Sequence record: MW822008.1
Direction: 5' to 3' (one strand)
DNA from: Escherichia phage BF17
DNA length: 64,000 nucleotides
Below are positions 51,133 through 64,000 of the stretch, piece by piece. The notes beneath the pieces were generated by a model that worked only from the letters and a program-made list of their open reading frames with translations, was not told the origin of the DNA and did not search any database. Position 1 is the stretch's first letter, and each line of letters starts with the position of its first letter. Made by a program: the position numbers and the translations under genes.

Positions 51133-51628
51133 TACTAATATCTGGTTAGATAACATAATCAAGACATTAGAATTAATTAAACTTACATTACAAAAAACTA
51201 CTGATATTGAAATTAATATTAAACAAGAAATATTAAACTATTATCATAGAAACAAATATAGCACGTTTATCTCTAAATTAATTTATGGATTATATGATAT
51301 TGAAGATATTTGCATCGGTTACAGTACTGGTATTTGCTTCACAGTTAATGGTTTAAAAAATGATTTAAATTTCAGACTTTCCGATGAAGAGCAAGATTTT
51401 CGTAGATTTTGTGATAATATTATGGATACAGATAAAATTACATTTGTTATTGAATTAAATCAAACGTGGTCTACATATGCAGATAAACCATTTGAAATTA
51501 ATGAAACAGATGTGTTAAACTATATTCGAGTTATGAAAATTCATGATTTGTGTAAAAACGCATTGTTAAGTATTGGAGCTTATAATGAAACATACGACTT
51601 GGTTGAAGATAGCAGAAGTAGTTGCTGA
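51104..51628 (+). CDS. hypothetical protein
   Basis: 174 aa track ORF; overlaps cd start by ~44 nt, 3' end uncertain. Confidence 0.45.
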   Translation: MKYTHLSIDDTNIWLDNIIKTLELIKLTLQKTTDIEINIKQEILNYYHRNKYSTFISKLIYGLYDIEDICIGYSTGICFTVNGLKNDLNFRLSDEEQDFRRFCDNIMDTDKITFVIELNQTWSTYADKPFEINETDVLNYIRVMKIHDLCKNALLSIGAYNETYDLVEDSRSSC

Positions 51629-52064
51629 GGAAAGTAAATGTATTTCACAAAAAGTTGGTTGTGTTATTGTTAAAAATAACCGAGTATTGAGTACTGGATA
51701 CAATGGTACTCCATCAAAACAACCAAATTGTTGTGATGTGAATCAACACTTAGTCAATGATGGACGTTTTCAAGACTGGGTTAGTGATGAAGCAAAGCAT
51801 GAACATCATGAGTGGAGTAATATTCATGAAATCCATGCTGAAATGAACGCTTTACTCTATAGTTCTCCTACTGAACGTCAAGGTGCTACTCTTTACACAA
51901 CACTACAACCATGTTATACTTGTTCTAAGTTGATCGCAGGTAGTGGAATTTCACGTGTAATTTATCTCAAAAATTATCCTCGTACACCACCAGAAGCTAT
52001 TAAAGTACTGGAAGATGCTGGAATTATTGTTAATTGCATTTATGATAAGGGTCTTGATAAATGA
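51585..52064 (+). CDS. cd: dCMP deaminase
   Basis: Track ORF 51573..52064; ATG 51585 after GGAG; zinc motifs HAEMNA and PCYTC; N-terminus aligns with T4 Cd. Confidence 0.9.
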   Translation: MKHTTWLKIAEVVAEESKCISQKVGCVIVKNNRVLSTGYNGTPSKQPNCCDVNQHLVNDGRFQDWVSDEAKHEHHEWSNIHEIHAEMNALLYSSPTERQGATLYTTLQPCYTCSKLIAGSGISRVIYLKNYPRTPPEAIKVLEDAGIIVNCIYDKGLDK

Positions 52065-55464: not shown

Positions 55465-56012
55465 GTGTTAAAGAAGTTCCCTTTGGTGAATATGGCACAC
55501 GTGCAAATTTTGTATTTTGTTATTTCTTTGCAAGAAAATGCAACCCTTACAAAAACTATGAGTTGAATGATATACCAGAAGTAAATTTAGTATTACTGCA
55601 ATTACGATGGGATGGTCTTCTTGGTGGATGTGGTGGAACCGTAGAAAGTACTGATATCTCACTAGAAGATGCGTTGCGTCGTGAAGTTCAAGAAGAAATG
55701 GATTACAATATTTTTGTTTCCCATCTTCGACCACTCAAAACTTTTGAAATTTACCCAGGTGCAAACAGTCACAGTTTTAGCTATGAAGTAACCTATGACG
55801 AGTTGAAACACATTAGAGATGGATACACTAATGCTAAACATGCAAGTGCAGAAGTTGCTGGTGTAAATTTATGTCATATTTCTCGTTATTCTAAGGGACA
55901 AAATCGAGAAGCGGGATATAATAATCTTATGACACAGAACTTCATCGGTACAGCAAAACAAGAATTGGAGTATCTGGTTCAAAAAGAAAACTTACTAATT
56001 AGTTATCTATAG
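55461..56012 (+). CDS. Nudix hydrolase
   Basis: ATGA-coupled to the sirtuin gene; Nudix box GGTVESTDISLEDALRREVQEE. Confidence 0.7.
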   Translation: MSVKEVPFGEYGTRANFVFCYFFARKCNPYKNYELNDIPEVNLVLLQLRWDGLLGGCGGTVESTDISLEDALRREVQEEMDYNIFVSHLRPLKTFEIYPGANSHSFSYEVTYDELKHIRDGYTNAKHASAEVAGVNLCHISRYSKGQNREAGYNNLMTQNFIGTAKQELEYLVQKENLLISYL

Positions 56013-56021
56013 GAGTTTAAC

Positions 56022-56342
56022 ATGTCTTACTCAATGTTTTTGGATGATATTCGTGATGCAAATCTATATTATCCAAACCAAGATATGGTGGTATGTCGTG
56101 ACTTTAAAAGTGCATGTGAATATGTTATTGAAAATGGAATTCCAGCATTTGTATCATTCGACCATGACTTGGGTGATGTGAGCGAAGACGAAAAGACTGG
56201 ATATTCTTTTGCTAAGTTTCTTATTGATTATATGTTTGATAATAATATTAAAGAACCGTTTGAGTACTTTGTTCACAGTAGTAATCCTGTTGGTAAAATT
56301 AATATTGAAACATACTTAAACAATGGATTTAACGCATTATGA
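56022..56342 (+). CDS. hypothetical protein
   Basis: 106 aa track ORF. Confidence 0.5.
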   Translation: MSYSMFLDDIRDANLYYPNQDMVVCRDFKSACEYVIENGIPAFVSFDHDLGDVSEDEKTGYSFAKFLIDYMFDNNIKEPFEYFVHSSNPVGKINIETYLNNGFNAL

Positions 56343-56641
56343 TTCAAACACACATCAAAAGTCTTATTTGTACTGTTCTGTTAGGTGCAGGAGTTCTTTG
56401 GTTCGGACAGTATCACGAGAACACTAAGCGTACCAACATTCACTACAATACCGCAGAAGTTGTTAGTTTAGGACAATGTAGCGAGTCCAAATGTTCATTT
56501 ATGTATAAAACCCAAAGTGGTGAAGTACGTAATGGACTATCAAGAGAACCAGTTTCAATTGGTCAACTTGTTTACCAGGAGTGCTGGGAAGAAAAGGTTC
56601 GAGGTTCACGTTGCTATGTTGAATACGAACCAAATATGTAA
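56339..56641 (+). CDS. membrane-anchored Cys-containing protein
   Basis: N-terminal hydrophobic segment; four Cys. Confidence 0.5.
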   Translation: MIQTHIKSLICTVLLGAGVLWFGQYHENTKRTNIHYNTAEVVSLGQCSESKCSFMYKTQSGEVRNGLSREPVSIGQLVYQECWEEKVRGSRCYVEYEPNM

Positions 56642-56701
56642 TAATCCGAGTCAATAACATTAGTCGAGTACAAGGATGTACTCATAACTCAAGGATGTTT
56701 T

Positions 56702-58141
56702 ATGAAAAAATATACAATTGACACAAACGTACTACTATCTGACCCGAATGCATCTATTGCTTTTGATGGTGCTGCAATCATTCTACCATTTACAGTACTG
56801 GAAGAATTGGATTCAATTAAGAGTCGTAATGTAGATGTTTCACGCGATGCTCGTGTTGCTATTCGTAACATTGAAGCAATTATTGCAGATGCATCACATG
56901 ATGAGATTAGTAGTACTGGTGTTAATATTGCTGATGTTCATACCAATATGAATCCTGATAGCAAATTGTTTGTTATTACAAACGAAGAAGCTGAAGCACT
57001 AATTCGTACTAAAGGTTCAGAAGAGAAAGTTCAAACCCTTCTCAAAAGCACAGTACCTGATGATAAAATCATTCTGGTAGCTTTAGCAACAGAATCAGTA
57101 CTGGTAACTCGTGATATCAACATGCGTATCAAAGCACTAAGTTATGGTGTCGAGGTACAAGATTATCGCCATGATATTGTTATTGGTGATAGTGATTTGA
57201 TTCACATTGGTCAACACCATTTGGAAATTAATTTTTGGGAAGTATATAGCAACTTATCCAATACTAATATTCAATCCGAACAAGTTGGTCGTCGTTTGTA
57301 TCATTACATTTCTAAAAGCTTGATTGAACATTTGCTTCCACAAAATCTATGCATCGGTGATTATCTATATGATGATGCAGACGTATTATTTGTGTACGAA
57401 GGTCAATCAGCAATTGAGGAAGATGATGGAACACTAACACCAGAAGATATTTTGGTATTCCAAGATATTGGACAATCAGTAGCTTTACGTGCTAAAGTAT
57501 GGGATATTAAAGCAAAGAATATCCAACAAGCACTCGCCATCAACAGTATTCTCGATCCTGATGTACATCTAACAGTACTGCTAGGTTCTGCTGGTACTGG
57601 TAAAACACTAATTACGATTGCTACTGCATTAGAATTAGTACTGGAAAAACGTAAATACGACCGAATCATCTTCTCTAAAACTCAAGACTCACAGTTTGAA
57701 GATATTGGTTTCTTGCCAGGTTCAGAAGCAGAAAAAGTGATTCCATTCTGTGGAGCCGCAATTGACGCGTTAGAGTTTCTTCATAAAGATGATGCTAACC
57801 CACAAGGTAGTATTGAAGAGATTATGAAACGTAATGTTATTCAATTTAAAGCACTAAACTTTGTACGTGGACGTTCATTCACCAACACTATTCTAGTAGT
57901 TGATGAATTCCAAAACATTACACCTGCACAAGCCAAAACAATCTTGACACGAGCAGGATTAAACTGTAAAGTAGTAATTATGGGTAACTTGAGTCAGATT
58001 GACAGTAAGTTTATTAGTCCTGTTAACAGTGGTTTGACATATGTAACTGAGAAGTTTAAAGATTGGGCAGGTTGTCGTGTCATCGAACTTGAAGGTGTTG
58101 TTCGCTCACCACTAGCTGAATTTGCTGAAGAAAATATGTAA
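56702..58141 (+). CDS. phoH: PIN-domain PhoH-like ATPase (PhoH2 type)
   Basis: N-terminal PIN-like region (DTNVLL, LEELD); Walker A GSAGTGKT; Walker B VVDEFQN. Confidence 0.88.
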   Translation: MKKYTIDTNVLLSDPNASIAFDGAAIILPFTVLEELDSIKSRNVDVSRDARVAIRNIEAIIADASHDEISSTGVNIADVHTNMNPDSKLFVITNEEAEALIRTKGSEEKVQTLLKSTVPDDKIILVALATESVLVTRDINMRIKALSYGVEVQDYRHDIVIGDSDLIHIGQHHLEINFWEVYSNLSNTNIQSEQVGRRLYHYISKSLIEHLLPQNLCIGDYLYDDADVLFVYEGQSAIEEDDGTLTPEDILVFQDIGQSVALRAKVWDIKAKNIQQALAINSILDPDVHLTVLLGSAGTGKTLITIATALELVLEKRKYDRIIFSKTQDSQFEDIGFLPGSEAEKVIPFCGAAIDALEFLHKDDANPQGSIEEIMKRNVIQFKALNFVRGRSFTNTILVVDEFQNITPAQAKTILTRAGLNCKVVIMGNLSQIDSKFISPVNSGLTYVTEKFKDWAGCRVIELEGVVRSPLAEFAEENM

Positions 58142-58144
58142 TAT

Positions 58145-58178
58145 TGTATGGGACATTATGTCCCATACATGATATAAT
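58145..58178 (+). promoter_or_regulatory. 25-bp perfect palindrome abutting TGaTATAAT -10
   Basis: 11-bp stem tgtatgggaca / tgtcccataca with 3-nt loop (58145-58169), then TGATATAAT (-10 at 58173-58178). Confidence 0.45.
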
Positions 58179-58209
58179 GTTGTTATCATACTACAGAAGG
58201 AGATATAAA

Positions 58210-58398
58210 ATGGCTAAACAACCTAAGAAAAAAGAACCAGTAGCAAAAGTTAAGAAAGAGAAAGTTATTCAATCTAAAGAACAACGTATGTACGAACAAC
58301 GTAAGAGTGAAACCCTATCCGGTCTACAAGCTCTACGCAAACAAGGTGTACTAACTCGTGCACAGTACCGTGAACTAGTAGCTCAGAAAGGTTTTTGA
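58210..58398 (+). CDS. small basic protein
   Basis: Track ORF 58144..58398; ATG 58210 seven nt after AAGGAG; Lys-rich N-terminus. Confidence 0.5.
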   Translation: MAKQPKKKEPVAKVKKEKVIQSKEQRMYEQRKSETLSGLQALRKQGVLTRAQYRELVAQKGF

Positions 58399-58502
58399 TT
58401 CATTTGAAGACATATTGTGGAGTTCTTAATAAATACTTTTATAAGAATAATAATACTTTTTATTAAATTAAAAAGAACTCCATGTGTTATTTCAGTTTTT
58501 CG

Positions 58503-58529
58503 TCCCTGTCTTTTGGCAGGGATTTTTTA
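58503..58529 (+). terminator. intrinsic terminator
   Basis: ccctg...caggg hairpin followed by ATTTTTT. Confidence 0.5.
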
Positions 58530-58624
58530 TATCTATATCTTGACAAAAGGAACAAATCATGAGAACATGTATTAAAGGAAGAATGACTTTCCATTAGGTT
58601 ATTTTAACTTAAAGGAGATTTCAT

Positions 58625-59182
58625 ATGTTTTTTGACCAAACATTTACGTTGTATCACGATTCTGGTAAAGTTGAGATTATTGATAATCTGTTAGAGTACA
58701 TTGCGGAACATGACGGTATAGACCGTTTCCACAGTAAGATGAAATTCGATTTAGCTGAATTCAACAAAAAGAATCGTGAAACATTTTGGAAGAACCGTTT
58801 CTATTACGAAATGTATCCAGAAAAGTTCGTAGGTTATTATCTTTGTACTGAAAAAGGATTACTTGTATCTCCTGATTTACTTATGGGTGAATACATGATA
58901 CTCTATAATGAGTACTGGGAACATAAACGTAAAGCTCGTGATAAGGAATGGCGACATAAGCGTTCGTATATGTACAAACATAACCACTCCCGATACAAGC
59001 GTCCTAAGACTCAGCAAGAGCGTCGTATGGCTTGTGCAGTACTGAAGGATGAGGGGGAACCTGAAATACGTGGAAGACGTAAGATGCGTTCATTACCATC
59101 GTATTGGGACGATATCAGAACAAGACACAGTACTGGCTGGAAATACAGTACTAAACGTAAACATCAATACAAAGGGAGCTAA
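58625..59182 (+). CDS. basic protein, Lys/Arg-rich C-terminal half
   Basis: AAAGGAG RBS; 185 aa. Confidence 0.55.
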   Translation: MFFDQTFTLYHDSGKVEIIDNLLEYIAEHDGIDRFHSKMKFDLAEFNKKNRETFWKNRFYYEMYPEKFVGYYLCTEKGLLVSPDLLMGEYMILYNEYWEHKRKARDKEWRHKRSYMYKHNHSRYKRPKTQQERRMACAVLKDEGEPEIRGRRKMRSLPSYWDDIRTRHSTGWKYSTKRKHQYKGS

Positions 59183-59209
59183 TGCTCCCTAATTTTATAG
59201 GTGAACTTT

Positions 59210-59539
59210 ATGAACAAAATTGACGTTACTGTAGTGATTGGTTATATTGAAATTGAACCGTGTGGCATTGATACCTTTATTGACACTCTTAATAAGTATC
59301 GTGCTGAATATAACGGTCCCATTAGTCTTTCACCCGACGGTGGTTACGGCGGTTTTCATGGATACAATGTAATTTGGACCAGAGAAGAAACTGACGAAGA
59401 ATATAATACACGAATTGAAGCTGAATCTAAAAAATGTGAAGAAATTGAACGTCAAGAAATGAAACACTTAATGAACAAGAAATCATTAAGTACCGAAGAG
59501 AAATCTAAACTGCTAAAATATATCAAGGATTACATGTAA
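59210..59539 (+). CDS. hypothetical protein
   Basis: Track ORF 59201..59539; ATG 59210. Confidence 0.5.
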   Translation: MNKIDVTVVIGYIEIEPCGIDTFIDTLNKYRAEYNGPISLSPDGGYGGFHGYNVIWTREETDEEYNTRIEAESKKCEEIERQEMKHLMNKKSLSTEEKSKLLKYIKDYM

Positions 59540-60189
59540 TGAAAAATGTAACTCAAGAAAAGATTCTGTACCTTGCAAAGTACAATGGTGGTTTCAATAT
59601 CATTAGCCGTGAGTACAGTGGTAATTTGGCTAAGTTGATTGACAGTTTGTTAGAATTTGATTTCATTAAATGGGAAACTAATGAACTTTGGTACGAATAT
59701 GCTGGTCAGAAATGGGAAAGTGATTATGATAATGCAATACATTCATACACTATCACCAAAGCAGGTGAAGTTCGATTAGCCATTATGCGTTGTGCATATA
59801 CTTACAAAAATCATAAAGGTGAAGAAAAACATATTCGCAGAAATGAAGAGCTATTACTTCTCATGGAAGCAGCAAAAGTTACAATGCATGATTTGTTCCA
59901 CCACCCACGTTGGTATGAAAATCTAACAAAAGCAGAGTACAAAGCTTTACGTTACATTGATGAACAAAACAACACCCCAGTTGAAGTTGATGATGTTAGT
60001 GATGATGAACTAAGCCTCAAAAATGTATTTGAAAGTACCAGTACTGAAAGTATTACAGACATTTCTGTACAGATGGCCCTAAAAGCAATGGAACTTTTCA
60101 AGACACAATATGAAGGACACAGTGCTGAAGAAGTAGAGCGTGAGTTCATCACACGCGTACAGATTGCATTGTTCCAATCGAAAAAGTAG
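59539..60189 (+). CDS. hypothetical protein
   Basis: 216 aa; ATGA overlap. Confidence 0.55.
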   Translation: MKNVTQEKILYLAKYNGGFNIISREYSGNLAKLIDSLLEFDFIKWETNELWYEYAGQKWESDYDNAIHSYTITKAGEVRLAIMRCAYTYKNHKGEEKHIRRNEELLLLMEAAKVTMHDLFHHPRWYENLTKAEYKALRYIDEQNNTPVEVDDVSDDELSLKNVFESTSTESITDISVQMALKAMELFKTQYEGHSAEEVEREFITRVQIALFQSKK

Positions 60190-60287
60190 GATGATATGAA
60201 ATATGAACATCCGTGATGGGTTATCATATAAAGAAGCAGGTAAAGATGGTGTCAAAGGTGAAGCTGTAGATCTTTGCATTTGTGCAC

Positions 60288-60316
60288 TTGACATGTTCGC
60301 TTTGTAATGCGATAAT
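60288..60316 (+). promoter_or_regulatory. sigma70-like promoter
   Basis: TTGACA (60288-60293), 17 nt spacer, GATAAT (60311-60316). Confidence 0.45.
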
Positions 60317-60397
60317 ATGAGTTCAGAAGAGATGGAACGTGAGTTCCTTACTTACATGAATGTTAAACTAGCCAAATGGCGTAAATCAATTCAATAG
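60317..60397 (+). pseudogene. remnant duplicate of the 3' end of the 59539..60189 gene
   Basis: 26-codon frame SSEEMEREFLTYMNVKLAKWRKSIQ parallels upstream C-terminus SAEEVEREFITRVQIALFQSKK; starts at promoter -10 so unlikely translated. Confidence 0.35.
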
Positions 60398-60406
60398 GTA
60401 TTTTAA

Positions 60407-61378
60407 ATGAAAACTAAAATTATTTCTGAACAAAAAATTGGCAATACTACAGTACTGAATCTTGAAGTTCAAGGTCTTAGTAATGTTCGTTCTCTTACGG
60501 TTTGTACTCAGAGAGATGATTTGACTGATTTCTATAGCTCAGAATACATGTCAGAAGAACCTTGGGATATGGGATGGTTGGACGGTAGTAGTTATATCAG
60601 TTCACGTTATAGTTTTGGTTCTCATGAAAATATTGAACAATTAAAAAATGAGTATATTAAACTCAGTGATACTATTGAAATGAAAGAAGAAGATTGTGTA
60701 GAACTTTTCATTTTTGAATTCGATGCCGGAAATGGTAATTCATTACTAGTAAGTAATATTGAAGAACATTTAATGTATCATGAAATTGAAGATGTAGATT
60801 TTGAAAGTATTAAAAATGTTGTTCATATGGTTGGTGGTAGTATTACTGATGATTCAGATATCGGTCATAATATTTCACTGTGCTTAATTTCTCATCCAAA
60901 AACTCGTGGTTTTAAAGTTCCACAAGATGAAACTTACGTGTCTGAAACTGCTGATGAAGGAATTTATCCTTGGAATGATTATGTAGAATACTATGGTCAT
61001 TTCTGTTCTGATACAAAAGAACTGAAAAAAGGCGAACAATATTTTGATATGTTCCGTGCTGCACAGCGTTTAGTACTGAATAATACTGAACTATTTCCTG
61101 ATCGCGGCGAAGAAAATATGATTGATATTATCTTCAAGAACTATGATTATGTACAGAACATTCCTGATAATGTACATTTGGAATATGTTCACAGTTCTTC
61201 AAACAAATTCTATAATATTGAATTGAATGCTCCAGTGTGTGAAGTAATTATTGAGTACGGTGCTATTGGTAAAACCAGTACTACTGATGGTGAAGAATTC
61301 GAAACTATTGAAGAAGCACGTAAGTTCTTCGAGAAGAAAGTAATTTCCAAAATTAAAAGTGGTTATAGCCCAAAATGA
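60407..61378 (+). CDS. hypothetical protein (323 aa)
   Basis: Track ORF. Confidence 0.6.
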   Translation: MKTKIISEQKIGNTTVLNLEVQGLSNVRSLTVCTQRDDLTDFYSSEYMSEEPWDMGWLDGSSYISSRYSFGSHENIEQLKNEYIKLSDTIEMKEEDCVELFIFEFDAGNGNSLLVSNIEEHLMYHEIEDVDFESIKNVVHMVGGSITDDSDIGHNISLCLISHPKTRGFKVPQDETYVSETADEGIYPWNDYVEYYGHFCSDTKELKKGEQYFDMFRAAQRLVLNNTELFPDRGEENMIDIIFKNYDYVQNIPDNVHLEYVHSSSNKFYNIELNAPVCEVIIEYGAIGKTSTTDGEEFETIEEARKFFEKKVISKIKSGYSPK

Positions 61379-61755
61379 AAATCACACGCTTTGGTAAAAC
61401 CTTTGAACTAAACATTGTTTCTGTTTATAAAAAAGGAAAATCAGGAAAGTTAAGCACTGATAATATTAGATTTGTTATTAGTGATTATTATGATATGTTT
61501 AATCAGGCATTTGAAGAAAATAAATTTGGTTTGATTTTATGTAAACCACAAAAACCGGAATTAGGTATTTTGGATTTAAGAACTGATAAGTCTGATTTTA
61601 TTGGTAATCTTGATATTATTGAATTTAAAGTTGATATATCAAAAGAACATTTTAGAGTTAAAAACTATAATTATTACAAAGTTGATATTAATTCTATCGA
61701 AGTACAAAACGTACTTGATGAACTTATCAGTAATAATTCGTGTTTTACTAAATGA
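61375..61755 (+). CDS. hypothetical protein
   Basis: 126 aa; ATGA overlap. Confidence 0.55.
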   Translation: MKITRFGKTFELNIVSVYKKGKSGKLSTDNIRFVISDYYDMFNQAFEENKFGLILCKPQKPELGILDLRTDKSDFIGNLDIIEFKVDISKEHFRVKNYNYYKVDINSIEVQNVLDELISNNSCFTK

Positions 61756-61767
61756 GAAAAAAATATC

Positions 61768-62001
61768 ATGAAAAATATATTCATTACATTAACAATATTT
61801 GTATCCATTATTCTCTGTGGTTGTGCTCCTAAAGTTGATGAGATGGATGCTGAAATCATCCGTCAAGGTTTAACAAAACTAAATCACCAAGGAACACTAT
61901 ACGCATGTCATACTATGCGTCATGGGCAAGATCTTAATCTCATGTGCAGGAAGATTGTGAATCGCAAACGTCTTAATACTGTTCCGAAGGATGCACAATG
62001 A
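61768..62001 (+). CDS. small putative lipoprotein
   Basis: Signal peptide MKNIFITLTIFVSIILCGC with lipobox-like LCGC. Confidence 0.5.
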   Translation: MKNIFITLTIFVSIILCGCAPKVDEMDAEIIRQGLTKLNHQGTLYACHTMRHGQDLNLMCRKIVNRKRLNTVPKDAQ

Positions 62002-62168
62002 AAGAAGTAATTGACTACAAATGTAAAAATTGTGGCAAAGATAAGGGTAAGCATTCAGTACAAGGGATGGCTTGCCCGAATCCAGGTCGTGGTAATTTCA
62101 GCGGGTTCAGTACTGAAAAGTCTTACGAACCGGATCATACCAAACCTGTAATGGGTTATAAATTATGA
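61998..62168 (+). CDS. small Cys-containing protein (56 aa)
   Basis: Untracked ORF; ATGA overlaps at both ends; CKNCGK motif. Confidence 0.4.
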   Translation: MKEVIDYKCKNCGKDKGKHSVQGMACPNPGRGNFSGFSTEKSYEPDHTKPVMGYKL

Positions 62169-62524
62169 GTGATTATGTAGCATTTCTTCATCGCTTTGGA
62201 GAAGCTAAAGAAAAACATATTATCCGTATGCCATTATATGGTGAAAAAGACTGGTACAAAAGTACTATAAGTGTAGGTGCATTTCGTGACCGTGAAGCTG
62301 GATTCTTTCTGGGTAAGCAACATGAACGAGAGGTACTTTGCTCACTGTGGCGTTTGGATGAATGGGATAGTGAGAACGTAAGAACTGCTGAATCAATGCT
62401 GGCTATTGTTGGTATTGCGAACTATCAGCACCCATATGACCTATTACCTACATTTGAACATGCTTCTTTGTTTGATTTTTACAAAGCAGTAGGGTATGAT
62501 TATAAAAAGAAACGTTACATTTAA
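62165..62524 (+). CDS. hypothetical protein
   Basis: 119 aa track ORF. Confidence 0.5.
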   Translation: MSDYVAFLHRFGEAKEKHIIRMPLYGEKDWYKSTISVGAFRDREAGFFLGKQHEREVLCSLWRLDEWDSENVRTAESMLAIVGIANYQHPYDLLPTFEHASLFDFYKAVGYDYKKKRYI

Positions 62525-62526
62525 TA

Positions 62527-62557
62527 TCAGTACTACCACAGTGGGCAGTACTTTTTA
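62527..62557 (+). terminator. possible intrinsic terminator
   Basis: Two AGTACT hexamers around accacagtgggc, then CTTTTT; weak. Confidence 0.25.
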
Positions 62558-62570
62558 ATTGGAGATTACT

Positions 62571-63185
62571 ATGACTACATCTGAAAAGTACTGGTGGATT
62601 TTGGCTCATCCTAAATTCATAAACAAAGATATGGTTCCAGCTAGGATTGATATAGAACCTCATGATGTGTGTCCAATGACAAATCGAATTGAAGATTTCA
62701 AAGCATTGAATACAAAGACTCAATTTTGGGTAGAATTTCTTTCACCAATGTATATTGAGCAAGACGACGAATGGGTACAAGCACATGATTATCAATTGGA
62801 TTGTGGTGGTGATACGTATGAAGAGGCGATTGATAAATTATACAAAAATGTGCTAAACACATATGGTGATTACACCCAACAAGAAGCAGATAACACATTT
62901 AATAAGATCCATGCATTCAAATCTACTCCATCAATTTTTAATCCTACTAAAACTGTTTGGGAGGAACGACACAGTTGGAGTTCATGTGTAATCGATGAAG
63001 AAACCAAAGAAAAAATCATCGATGATATAAAAAATTTAAAAAATACGATAGAAGCCTTGCGTGAATTCATAATGTCTTGTACAATAGAACAACAGAAAGA
63101 GGCAAAGATACATTTGGAGAGTGAAGAATGTAAACTTTGGGTTCTAGAGAAATCTATTGAAAAGGGTATAGACTTAGACTTATGA
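62571..63185 (+). CDS. hypothetical protein
   Basis: Track ORF 62559..63185; ATG 62571 six nt after GGAG. Confidence 0.55.
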   Translation: MTTSEKYWWILAHPKFINKDMVPARIDIEPHDVCPMTNRIEDFKALNTKTQFWVEFLSPMYIEQDDEWVQAHDYQLDCGGDTYEEAIDKLYKNVLNTYGDYTQQEADNTFNKIHAFKSTPSIFNPTKTVWEERHSWSSCVIDEETKEKIIDDIKNLKNTIEALREFIMSCTIEQQKEAKIHLESEECKLWVLEKSIEKGIDLDL

Positions 63186-63550
63186 ATAGTAAATTGGAGA
63201 AACTAATCGAAGAATTACGCCAGATGCCACCTATTGAACAAGTAGGAAATTACAAACGGTATCGTGTTATTGCTCGTGCACTTGATAAAAAAGGTAGAGT
63301 ACTGGCAACTCGCACAAATTCTTATACACAGACTCACCCAGTACAGAAGGGTTTCGCCATTCGTGCTGGGCGACCGCAAGGTGAGTTTCTTCATGCTGAA
63401 ATTTCATGTTTACTGGCTGCTCGTGCTGATGTTCATACTTTACTGATTGCACGGATAAGTAAAGATGGAATTCCTGTTCCGGCTAAACCATGTGAAATTT
63501 GCTCATTAGCAATAAAAGAATATGGGGTGAAAGAGATTATCCACACATGA
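63182..63550 (+). CDS. cytidine/deoxycytidylate deaminase-fold protein (small)
   Basis: Zinc motifs HAE (FLHAEISCL) and PCxxC (PCEICS); 122 aa. Confidence 0.65.
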   Translation: MNSKLEKLIEELRQMPPIEQVGNYKRYRVIARALDKKGRVLATRTNSYTQTHPVQKGFAIRAGRPQGEFLHAEISCLLAARADVHTLLIARISKDGIPVPAKPCEICSLAIKEYGVKEIIHT

Positions 63551-63768
63551 AAATTGAAAGATATGCTAAGCATACTGTTGGGTGTGTAAATGATATATTC
63601 TATTATTATATTTTTGCACCTGAACTACGTTTTCAAATCACAACATACAATGATGGCAGATTTAAAGATACAAACTTCCTCATAACCGACTTAGCAAAGT
63701 ATGCGAATACAGAACATTTTAATCATTTAGTATTTGTGTACTGTATACCAAACCCAAATAAAAAGTAG
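63547..63768 (+). CDS. hypothetical protein
   Basis: Track ORF 63499..63768; ATG 63547 overlaps upstream stop. Confidence 0.45.
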   Translation: MKIERYAKHTVGCVNDIFYYYIFAPELRFQITTYNDGRFKDTNFLITDLAKYANTEHFNHLVFVYCIPNPNKK

Positions 63769-63778
63769 GAGATTAAAA

Positions 63779-64000
63779 ATGGCTAAAACAATTTCTTTAA
63801 AAAATGAAAATGTAGGACAACGCAAAGATGGTTTCTTTGGTTTTTCTTGGACAACATTATTCTTTGGACCGTTCCCTGCATTGTTTCGTGGTGACTTTAT
63901 TACGTTCATCGGTGCATTCGTAATTTACTTCATCCTCAACGCAGTGTCATTTTGGATTGTGGGTACAATTGCAATGGTTGTATGGGCATTTCTTTATAAT
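63779..64000 (+). CDS. membrane protein (3' partial, runs off window)
   Basis: Untracked open frame to window end; AGGAG RBS 7 nt upstream; hydrophobic FITFIGAFVIYFILNAVSFWIVGTIAMVVWAFL. Confidence 0.5.
   Translation, partial: MAKTISLKNENVGQRKDGFFGFSWTTLFFGPFPALFRGDFITFIGAFVIYFILNAVSFWIVGTIAMVVWAFLYN

Follow-up and report, generated by a model that had tools for sequence, protein, structure and literature searches.

A second, minimal zinc-deaminase-fold protein encoded in addition to dCMP deaminase by Escherichia phage BF17

What does a second deaminase-fold protein do in a phage that already encodes a canonical deoxycytidine monophosphate (dCMP) deaminase? The question is raised by an open reading frame (ORF) of 122 residues at 63182..63550 in a stretch of 64,000 nucleotides of Escherichia phage BF17 (MW822008.1), hereafter the window. 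A sequence-only reading had pointed to the HAE and PCxxC zinc-ligand motifs of the cytidine deaminase superfamily in this ORF, had called it much shorter than the dCMP deaminase Cd of the same window, and had considered its substrate beyond inference from sequence. The ORF is present exactly as described, both motifs can be read off the sequence, and "much shorter" is a fair description of 122 versus 159 residues, though the difference is modest.

We found that this protein, here called the mini-deaminase, is indeed a second, minimal member of the superfamily besides Cd, with a PF00383 score above the cut-off and a deaminase fold in the AlphaFold2 (AF2) model; Cd itself is real. The mini-deaminase fails the defining tests of dCMP deaminases, cytidine deaminases (CDAs) and TadA. 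Its own family of minimal deaminases is large, hybrid in architecture and apparently restricted to phages, gp260 of phage phiKZ included. Our preferred reading of its function, to which we tentatively give a probability of about 0.45, is that of an unregulated minimal cytosine (deoxy)nucleotide deaminase, which would add C-to-U/T flux beside the allosterically controlled Cd.

Fold and catalytic motifs of the 122-residue protein

The mini-deaminase matched PF00383 with 29 bits (E = 1e-6; gathering cut-off, 25 bits) and PHROG 174, annotated as dCMP deaminase, with E = 3e-13. The corresponding values for Cd were 78 bits and E = 9e-62, and Cd shares about 41% identity with T4-like cd genes. The HAE and PCxxC motifs of the mini-deaminase are spaced by 32 residues, counted from His to Pro, which lies within the superfamily range of about 25-35. 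The zinc ligands and the catalytic Glu are invariant in alignment A1, which holds 27 sequences, mostly orthologues from Rak2-like jumbo phages. The gene is under strong purifying selection, with a dN/dS ratio of 0.03 relative to the orthologue of phage 121Q (dS 0.54) and of 0.13-0.33 relative to more distant Rak2-like orthologues. The catalytic motif is intact, and zinc-dependent hydrolytic deamination is the default expectation.

The AF2 model, computed from the 27-sequence alignment, has deaminase topology (predicted local distance difference test, pLDDT, 93; predicted template-modelling score, pTM, 0.85). Its elements are helices at residues 3-14, 53-61, 72-80 and 105-114 and strands at residues 28-34, 40-45, 86-92 and 118-121. 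The predicted fold is the three-layer alpha/beta/alpha arrangement of deaminases, in which helices 2 and 3 each begin with one of the two motifs. In the model the chain stops at strand 4 (residues 118-121 of 122) and lacks helix 4 and strand 5.

The top Foldseek matches of the model were tetrameric CDAs of mycobacteria (4wif, E = 2.9e-4) together with human dCMP deaminase, all of them weak (E about 3e-4, template-modelling score about 0.5). In other structure comparisons, blasticidin-S, guanine and ammeline deaminases and RibD-type deaminases of riboflavin intermediates scored equally well, and small DNA-acting toxin deaminases of similar size were among the lower-ranked matches. All of these are deaminase folds; best matches outside the superfamily, which the sequence-only reading had named as the outcome that would overturn it, did not occur. 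The protein thus has a deaminase fold, but structure by itself does not assign it to a clade.

The mini-deaminase family

A word-index search returned 49 relatives, nearly all of them from Rak2-like jumbo phages. When 1.84 billion representatives were searched exhaustively with a profile, 4253 matched at E <= 1e-3, of which 1020 also passed E <= 1e-10. The family is seen in phage and metagenome sequences, and its best 150 representatives are all 96-166 residues long (median 125). With tblastn against 50,697 phage records, the family was found in 196 genomes. The Rak2-like carriers infect Escherichia, Klebsiella, Salmonella, Cronobacter, Pectobacterium, Erwinia, Serratia, Yersinia and Xanthomonas, and the other carriers are phiKZ-like Pseudomonas phages, Aeromonas myophages of about 115 kb and T4-like cyanophages. 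Across 185,579 prokaryotic species, each represented by a single genome, a stringent pattern based on alignment A3 matched only two contigs of metagenome-assembled genomes. These results suggest that the family is essentially phage-borne. To our knowledge, it includes the smallest deaminase-fold proteins.

The family signature consists of D-[KR]-[KR]-G, N46-S-Y, [TS]-H52-P53-x-Q55, [YF]-L-H-[AS]-E, R91, G96 and [AS]-K-P-C-x-[IV]-C, with [YHF]-[TS] closing the chain at strand 4 or shortly beyond it. All of these positions are present in the BF17 protein. The stretch from the arginine to the second motif follows the pattern [IV]x[IV]xR-x3-G-x4-[AS]K-PCxxC. Among the 149 family representatives of alignment A2, all of which matched PF00383, R91 was found in 147, H52 in 141, P53 in 140 and Q55 in 131. 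H-[AS]-E is kept by 148 of these representatives, and a single one departs from PCxxC. The departures from HAE and PCxxC are found in P0147 and P0182, one with R-A-E and the other with L-C-x-C-C, which are possibly inactive copies or sequencing errors. H-S-E occurs in seven further representatives, as in phiKZ gp260.

The part of the chain past PCxxC is bimodal in length, with either 15-17 residues, stopping at strand 4 as in BF17, or 25-29 residues. In the AF2 model of a long-tail member, P0046 (pLDDT 93), the additional stretch folds into an antiparallel beta4-beta5 hairpin (strands 107-112 and 115-120). An antiparallel hairpin is typical of the CDA/blasticidin-S deaminase division of the superfamily, and helix 4 with a parallel strand 5 of the dCMP deaminase/TadA/RibD division. 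At the other end, many members of 96-108 residues start directly at strand 1 and lack helix 1. In its architecture, the family therefore joins a core sequence like that of dCMP deaminases to a C-terminus that is either CDA-like or missing.

One of the carriers is phiKZ, a model phage that could serve for the study of the family through gp260. The gene PHIKZ260 (NC_004629.1, 246758-247117; 4998-5357 in our locus L004) encodes a protein with 32% identity to the BF17 protein over 118 residues (E = 6e-24), and its Pfam score of 20 bits is below the cut-off. The two proteins share the THPxQ insert, the layout of Arg, hairpin and PCxxC, and the end at strand 4. However, gp260 has HSE instead of HAE and is encoded by a stand-alone gene, and many other family members differ from both in lacking helix 1 or in having an extra strand 5. 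A differential RNA sequencing study of the early infection phase assigned gp260 its own primary transcription start site (PMC8244752).

Substrate and role

In our preferred reading, a minimal core of helix 1, strands 1 and 2, the family-specific helix, the HAE helix, strand 3 with the Arg hairpin, the PCxxC helix and strand 4 would suffice for catalysis. A zinc-bound water would be held by His71, Cys104 and Cys107, with Glu73 as the proton shuttle. The cytosine (deoxy)ribose moiety would be gripped by Asn46, Ala72 and Pro103 in the manner of T4 dCMP deaminase. Free cytosine (deoxy)nucleotides, such as dCMP and possibly the deoxycytidine di- and triphosphates (dCDP, dCTP) or cytidine monophosphate (CMP), would be converted into uracil nucleotides. 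This deamination would escape the control by dCTP and thymidine triphosphate (dTTP) that governs canonical Cd, and the added C-to-U/T flux would enter the precursor pool of a phage of 33% GC in a host of 51% GC. We infer all three of substrate class, absence of regulation and physiological role. The sequence-only reading was right that the substrate cannot be read from the sequence, because the protein lacks the defining features of dCMP deaminases, CDAs and TadA alike.

The leaning towards cytosine nucleotides comes from profile placement, the PHROG 174 match included, from the pattern of sub-threshold NCBIfam matches, from retained contact residues and from conserved basic residues. A search of PDB sequences with the single sequence gave noise only (styrene monooxygenase, ribosomal protein S18; E > 0.3). 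The family profile, in contrast to the single sequence, placed the dCMP deaminase 4p9c at the top (E = 4e-11), and two chains of the Mycoplasma capricolum tRNA-specific deaminase second and third (6l2m, E = 4.2e-9; 6l2l, E = 1.4e-8). Further dCMP deaminases followed (2hvv, E = 5e-8; 1vq2 and 2w4l, about 1e-6), then the TadA entry 2nx8 (2e-5) and a CDA (9e-5). The comparison with the CDA, TadA and dCMP deaminase families that had been proposed from the sequence thus finds dCMP deaminases nearest. In hhalign, the family matched the window's own Cd with a probability of 96.9% (E = 1.9e-10). Sub-threshold NCBIfam matches among the 149 representatives were more frequent for dCTP/dCMP-type models (91 and 44) and tetrameric CDA (56) than for TadA (17) and RibD (11).

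T4 dCMP deaminase contacts the deoxycytidine moiety through Val24, Asn40, Ala105, Glu106 and Pro131 (PMC12697855). In the alignment, their counterparts in the mini-deaminase are Ile30, Asn46, Ala72, Glu73 and Pro103. The last four are invariant or near-invariant in the family (N46 is invariant in A1 and present in 146 of 149 sequences in A2), such residues not being exclusive to dCMP deaminases. Basic residues are conserved at K/R36, K/R37, R/K81, R91 and K/R102 (A2 columns), which hints at a phosphate-bearing ligand. We compared the mini-deaminase with T4 Cd (1VQ2), the 138-residue enzyme of cyanophage S-TIM5 (4P9C), the ComEB-type enzyme of S. mutans (2HVV) and human DCTD (2W4L). It shares with these dCMP deaminases the HAE and PCxxC zinc site, the best profile matches, the counterparts of the contact residues and a DKKGR-type beta1-beta2 turn. 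The insert between strand 2 and HAE is also of similar length, as judged by eye from an almost gap-free HMMER alignment to 4p9c, whereas the TadA-like 6l2l has a gap there.

The base composition of the loci and their neighbourhood support the preferred reading weakly. Of 80 viral loci from IMG/VR used for the analysis of neighbourhoods, 12 are Rak2-like and 68 are not; the latter have 30-48% GC (median 39%), and the window has 32.9%. For phiKZ and its host P. aeruginosa the values are 37% and 66%, and for coliphages and E. coli 33-35% and 51%. The genes for NrdD and NrdG lie about 2 kb downstream of the deaminase in relatives of BF17, and ribonucleotide reductase genes, identified by eye, neighbour family members in seven other loci.

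Several observations weigh against this reading, beginning with the distance from canonical dCMP deaminases. These were reported to be hexamers of protomers of about 20 kDa, with an allosteric dCTP/dTTP site that contains a G(Y/W)N(A/G) motif at a protomer interface involving helix 4 (PMC12088426). T4-type enzymes have a second zinc site with Cys19, Cys49, His94 and Glu102 as ligands (PMC12697855). In the mini-deaminase the allosteric motif is absent: T-R-T-N-S-Y stands where Cd has S-T-G-Y-N-G, and the family consensus is G-x-N-S with a variable x. Helix 4 and the parallel strand 5 are absent as well, and about 30 residues of Cd remain unmatched past its RVIY strand in hhalign. Because these two elements are absent, no canonical hexamer or allosteric interface is expected. 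The helix 4/strand 5 segment of dCMP deaminases also contributes to the nucleotide site. Ligands for the second zinc site, which is not universal among dCMP deaminases, were not found in the alignment; the only cysteines are C76, C104 and C107, and the region of the THPxQ insert replaces the second-zinc insert of T4-type enzymes. The mini-deaminase is also shorter (122 versus 138-193 residues) and has before PCxxC an insertion bearing Arg91, with 10 residues (SKDGIPVPAK) between strand 3 and PCxxC that are additional relative to Cd in hhalign. Longer family members finish in an antiparallel hairpin and not in helix 4. The protein is not a canonical dCMP deaminase.

Among the NCBIfam equivalog models none reached its cut-off with the 122-residue protein, the sole match being TIGR01354 with 13.7 bits versus a cut-off of 113.65. 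TIGR02571 (ComEB), sub-threshold in 44 of the 149 representatives, gave no match to it at E <= 1. Structure comparison alone does not tell apart dCMP deaminases, CDAs, TadA, blasticidin-S deaminases and guanine deaminases. The phage moreover has the T4-type route already: besides Cd, a thymidylate synthase and a deoxynucleoside monophosphate kinase have been reported for phAPEC6. Likewise, phiKZ-like carriers already have a Dcd-type dCTP deaminase and ThyA; OP310984.1, for example, encodes a gp260 homologue together with a Dcd-type enzyme of dUTPase fold (PF22769, 117 bits), ThyA and thymidylate kinase (L087:17594-18163 (-) and L087:4821-6287 (-)). Because a complete C-to-U route is present in both the Rak2-like and the phiKZ-like carriers, pure redundancy is an unattractive explanation, and the repeated retention of the family beside that route suggests a job that is not redundant. 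Within 6 kb in the 80 viral loci, no ThyA, Cd or Dcd was detectable (ThyX was not searched). For members of the family, the literature yielded annotations only, and no biochemical data were found.

A nucleoside deaminase of CDA type, working as a small homo-oligomer in the salvage, to uridine and deoxyuridine, of cytidine and deoxycytidine that the breakdown of host nucleic acids sets free, is an unlikely alternative in our estimate. Tetrameric CDAs carry Cys-Ala-Glu with the first zinc ligand, an N-x-E-N ribose motif and a loop between strand 3 and PCxxC. The mini-deaminase resembles the homotetrameric CDAs and blasticidin-S deaminase (4WIF, 3DMO, 1UX1, 3OJ6, 2Z3G) in size and in the strand 3-PCxxC loop, and its long-tail relatives share their antiparallel beta4-beta5 hairpin. 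The first structural ranks and the sub-threshold TIGR01354 matches in 56 representatives agree with such an enzyme. However, the BF17 protein has HAE with His in place of Cys as the first ligand, N-S-Y in place of N-x-E-N, no strand 5 and hence no hairpin, and it lacks the C-terminal segment with which CDAs close the active site next to it. Its TIGR01354 score is far below the cut-off, the family profile favours dCMP deaminases (4e-11 versus 9e-5), and the conserved basic residues hint at a ligand with phosphate.

The 'dCMP deaminase' label itself covers several activities in phages. The phage enzyme mSCD-B5 (154 residues) is selective for 5-methyl- and 5-hydroxymethylcytosine and acts on deoxynucleoside triphosphates and single-stranded DNA (ssDNA); the modification-linked phage deaminases of Yang et al. 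are full 154-residue folds, 70% of which lie beside a thymidylate synthase homologue (bioRxiv 10.1101/2024.12.05.627091). For PBS1, DSS3_VP1 and phiR1-37, the enzymes called 'dCMP deaminases' proved to be zinc-dependent dCTP deaminases (PMC12697855). These enzymes are, like the mini-deaminase, phage-encoded members of the deaminase superfamily, but they are full-size folds, whereas the mini-deaminase is truncated and has no linkage to thymidylate synthase. Such cases show that the label fixes neither the phosphorylation state, nor the C5 modification, nor the choice between mono- and polynucleotides, and that the substrate cannot be read from a 'dCMP deaminase' annotation.

Phage 'dCMP deaminases' that act on ssDNA as well as on mononucleotides also lend some plausibility to a polynucleotide editor, which would deaminate cytosine or adenine in tRNA, other RNA or ssDNA, for tRNA maturation or an attack on host nucleic acids. 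The Joint Genome Institute (JGI) pipeline annotates three relatives as TadA, TadA models are matched below threshold in 17 representatives, and the DNA-acting toxin deaminases are of like size. We nevertheless consider such an editor quite improbable. The chain ends at strand 4 and has no C-terminal helix or extension for binding RNA or DNA, such as the C-terminal helices of TadA for the anticodon arm, and the TadA model NF008113 gave no match to the 122-residue protein. The ssDNA-active phage enzymes are full-size and lie beside thymidylate synthase, a linkage absent here. A DNA mutator would threaten the phage's own genome of 33% GC, and carriers occur both with and without tRNA genes, although this was no systematic survey.

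A non-canonical small molecule as substrate, deaminated for pool sanitation or counter-defence rather than for the supply of thymidine monophosphate (dTMP), is only slightly better placed and seems to us rather unlikely. Candidates are modified cytosine nucleotides (5-methyl- or 5-hydroxymethyl-dCMP), immune signalling nucleotides that contain cytosine or adenine, nucleoside antibiotics and other aminated heterocycles. The protein is always a second C-to-U-type enzyme in Rak2-like and phiKZ-like phages, which suggests a job of its own; it is encoded among small accessory or early genes, and gp260 has its own start site. Deaminases of blasticidin S, guanine, ammeline and riboflavin intermediates score equally in structure, and the family-invariant H52, P53, Q55 and R91 have no counterpart in characterised enzymes. 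Nevertheless, no partner gene is conserved outside the Rak2-like group, no defence-related model was matched, and the residues that hold deoxycytidine in T4 dCMP deaminase are retained.

The absence of helix 4 and strand 5, which normally complete the active site, could also mark a non-catalytic remnant whose deaminase fold serves as a binding or regulatory subunit, for example as a partner of the 204-residue protein encoded immediately upstream. One representative has RAE, and in Rak2-like phages the deaminase gene is probably coupled in translation to the conserved 204-residue gene, which adjoins it in all 12 Rak2-like loci. This gene never lies beside family members elsewhere, however, and because it is confined to Rak2-like loci its product is not a general partner of the family. 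With zinc ligands and catalytic Glu kept in 148 of 149 representatives, invariant in A1 and under strong purifying selection, we regard a remnant as highly improbable.

A bolder interpretation, to which we give a low probability, takes the family as an apparently phage-restricted clade of the smallest zinc deaminases known, with a core of about 96-125 residues, in some members without helix 1 and strand 5, and a job distinct from dTMP synthesis. That job could possibly be the deamination of a modified or signalling nucleotide or of a polynucleotide, for counter-defence or host takeover.

Neighbourhood, existing annotation and significance

The features of the locus are listed in Table 1. The genes for the 204-, 122- and 73-residue proteins are probably translationally coupled, because their stops and starts overlap as ATGA at 63182..63185 and 63547..63550.

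Table 1. Positions of the mini-deaminase gene, its motifs, its neighbours and Cd in the window
Feature	Coordinates	Strand	Details
Minimal zinc deaminase gene	63182..63550	+	ATG start, 122 residues and stop; from the ORF list
Codons of H71-A72-E73	63392..63400	+	Zinc-ligand His and proton-shuttle Glu (predicted); start of helix 2
Codons of P103-C104-E-I-C107	63488..63502	+	PCxxC zinc-ligand motif; start of helix 3
Codon of N46	63317..63319	+	Aligned with T4 dCMP deaminase Asn40; context T-R-T-N-S-Y
Family-specific insert T51-H52-P53-x-Q55 and extra helix 53-61	63332..63364	+	Between strand 2 and the HAE helix
Arg91 (end of strand 3) and 10-residue hairpin-like loop SKDGIPVPAK	63452..63487	+	Directly before PCxxC
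Strand 4 (E-I-I-H-T) and C-terminus	63533..63547	+	Residues 118-121 in the AF2 model; chain end
Cd, canonical T4-type dCMP deaminase	51585..52064	+	159 residues; STGYNGTP, HAE, PCYTC; helix 4/strand 5 region
Upstream 204-residue gene (phrog_16370)	62571..63185	+	Stop overlaps the deaminase start (ATGA)
Downstream 73-residue gene (121Q gp491 orthologue)	63547..63768	+	Start overlaps the deaminase stop (ATGA)

Neither of the two flanking genes, nor the upstream genes for 119, 56 and 77 residues, had an informative match in Pfam, PHROG, PADLOC or PDB. The 56-residue ORF (61998..62168, + strand; phrog_10623, orthologue of 121Q gp487) has a C-x-x-C and later a single Cys-Pro, and possibly encodes a small zinc-ribbon-like protein. 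A scan for promoters and terminators found 19 promoter-like sites versus 16.8 in shuffled sequence and 0 terminators, with no excess over shuffled. The deaminase gene is one of a long series of small genes, early or accessory in kind, that are all read in one direction. In 121Q and E9.1 (L001 and L003, corresponding to about 56000-64000 of the window and beyond), Sir2-like, Nudix and PhoH-like genes lie upstream, and NrdD, a small ORF and NrdG downstream. Such a mixed neighbourhood of NAD and nucleotide metabolism is typical of the early regions of large myophages.

Among the 68 non-Rak2 loci no conserved partner gene was found, the largest cluster being a helicase-like protein in 14, and PADLOC gave no defence-system match for the deaminase. 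In about 6-12 of these loci, genes resembling an amidoligase, a class-I glutamine amidotransferase and a class-II (Ntn) amidotransferase were recognised by eye a few kb away (for example L018:4085-5140, L018:1576-2208 and L018:5142-6371; L025:5353-6135). An amidoligase with two amidotransferases is the trio of phage 'peptide/metabolite modification' cassettes.

The window region shares 99.8% identity with Escherichia phages SHEFM2K and phAPEC6, and 92-99% with PBECO4, 121Q, Sharanji and others; the close relatives are Asteriusvirus jumbo phages of the Rak2-like group. The orthologue of the mini-deaminase (121Q gp490, CBB_135, E9.1 CDS0250) is called 'dCMP deaminase' in 121Q, E9.1, JP4, A4, GAP32, BF and CBB, 'cytidine deaminase' in Munch, 'deoxycytidylate deaminase' in Muenster and 'hypothetical protein' in PBECO4, phAPEC6, RaK2 and Sharanji. 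It has also been counted in a paper among two CMP/dCMP deaminases of phage CBB. The existence of a second deaminase-fold gene in Rak2-like phages and its assignment to the superfamily are therefore already public.

The 'tRNA-specific adenosine deaminase' described for Sharanji was considered as a further name of the mini-deaminase and rejected, the Sharanji orthologue being the 'hypothetical protein' WNN14749.1. In Sharanji (OR545507.1), the gene so named lies 23 genes from WNN14749.1, an offset equal to that of Cd in phage E9.1. Judged from gene numbering only, it is probably the canonical T4-type dCMP deaminase and hence misannotated.

At face value, the mini-deaminase gene is an ordinary accessory gene of nucleotide metabolism, already on record as 'dCMP deaminase'. 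That label, however, is unsupported by the defining features of dCMP deaminases. If the protein is a cytosine-nucleotide deaminase, it bears on the rebalancing of pyrimidine pools by AT-rich phages; otherwise, it may represent a substrate class that is new. The family is also relevant to protein engineering, as it marks how small a functional deaminase fold can be, and if nucleic acids were its substrate, it would offer an ultra-compact scaffold for base editing.

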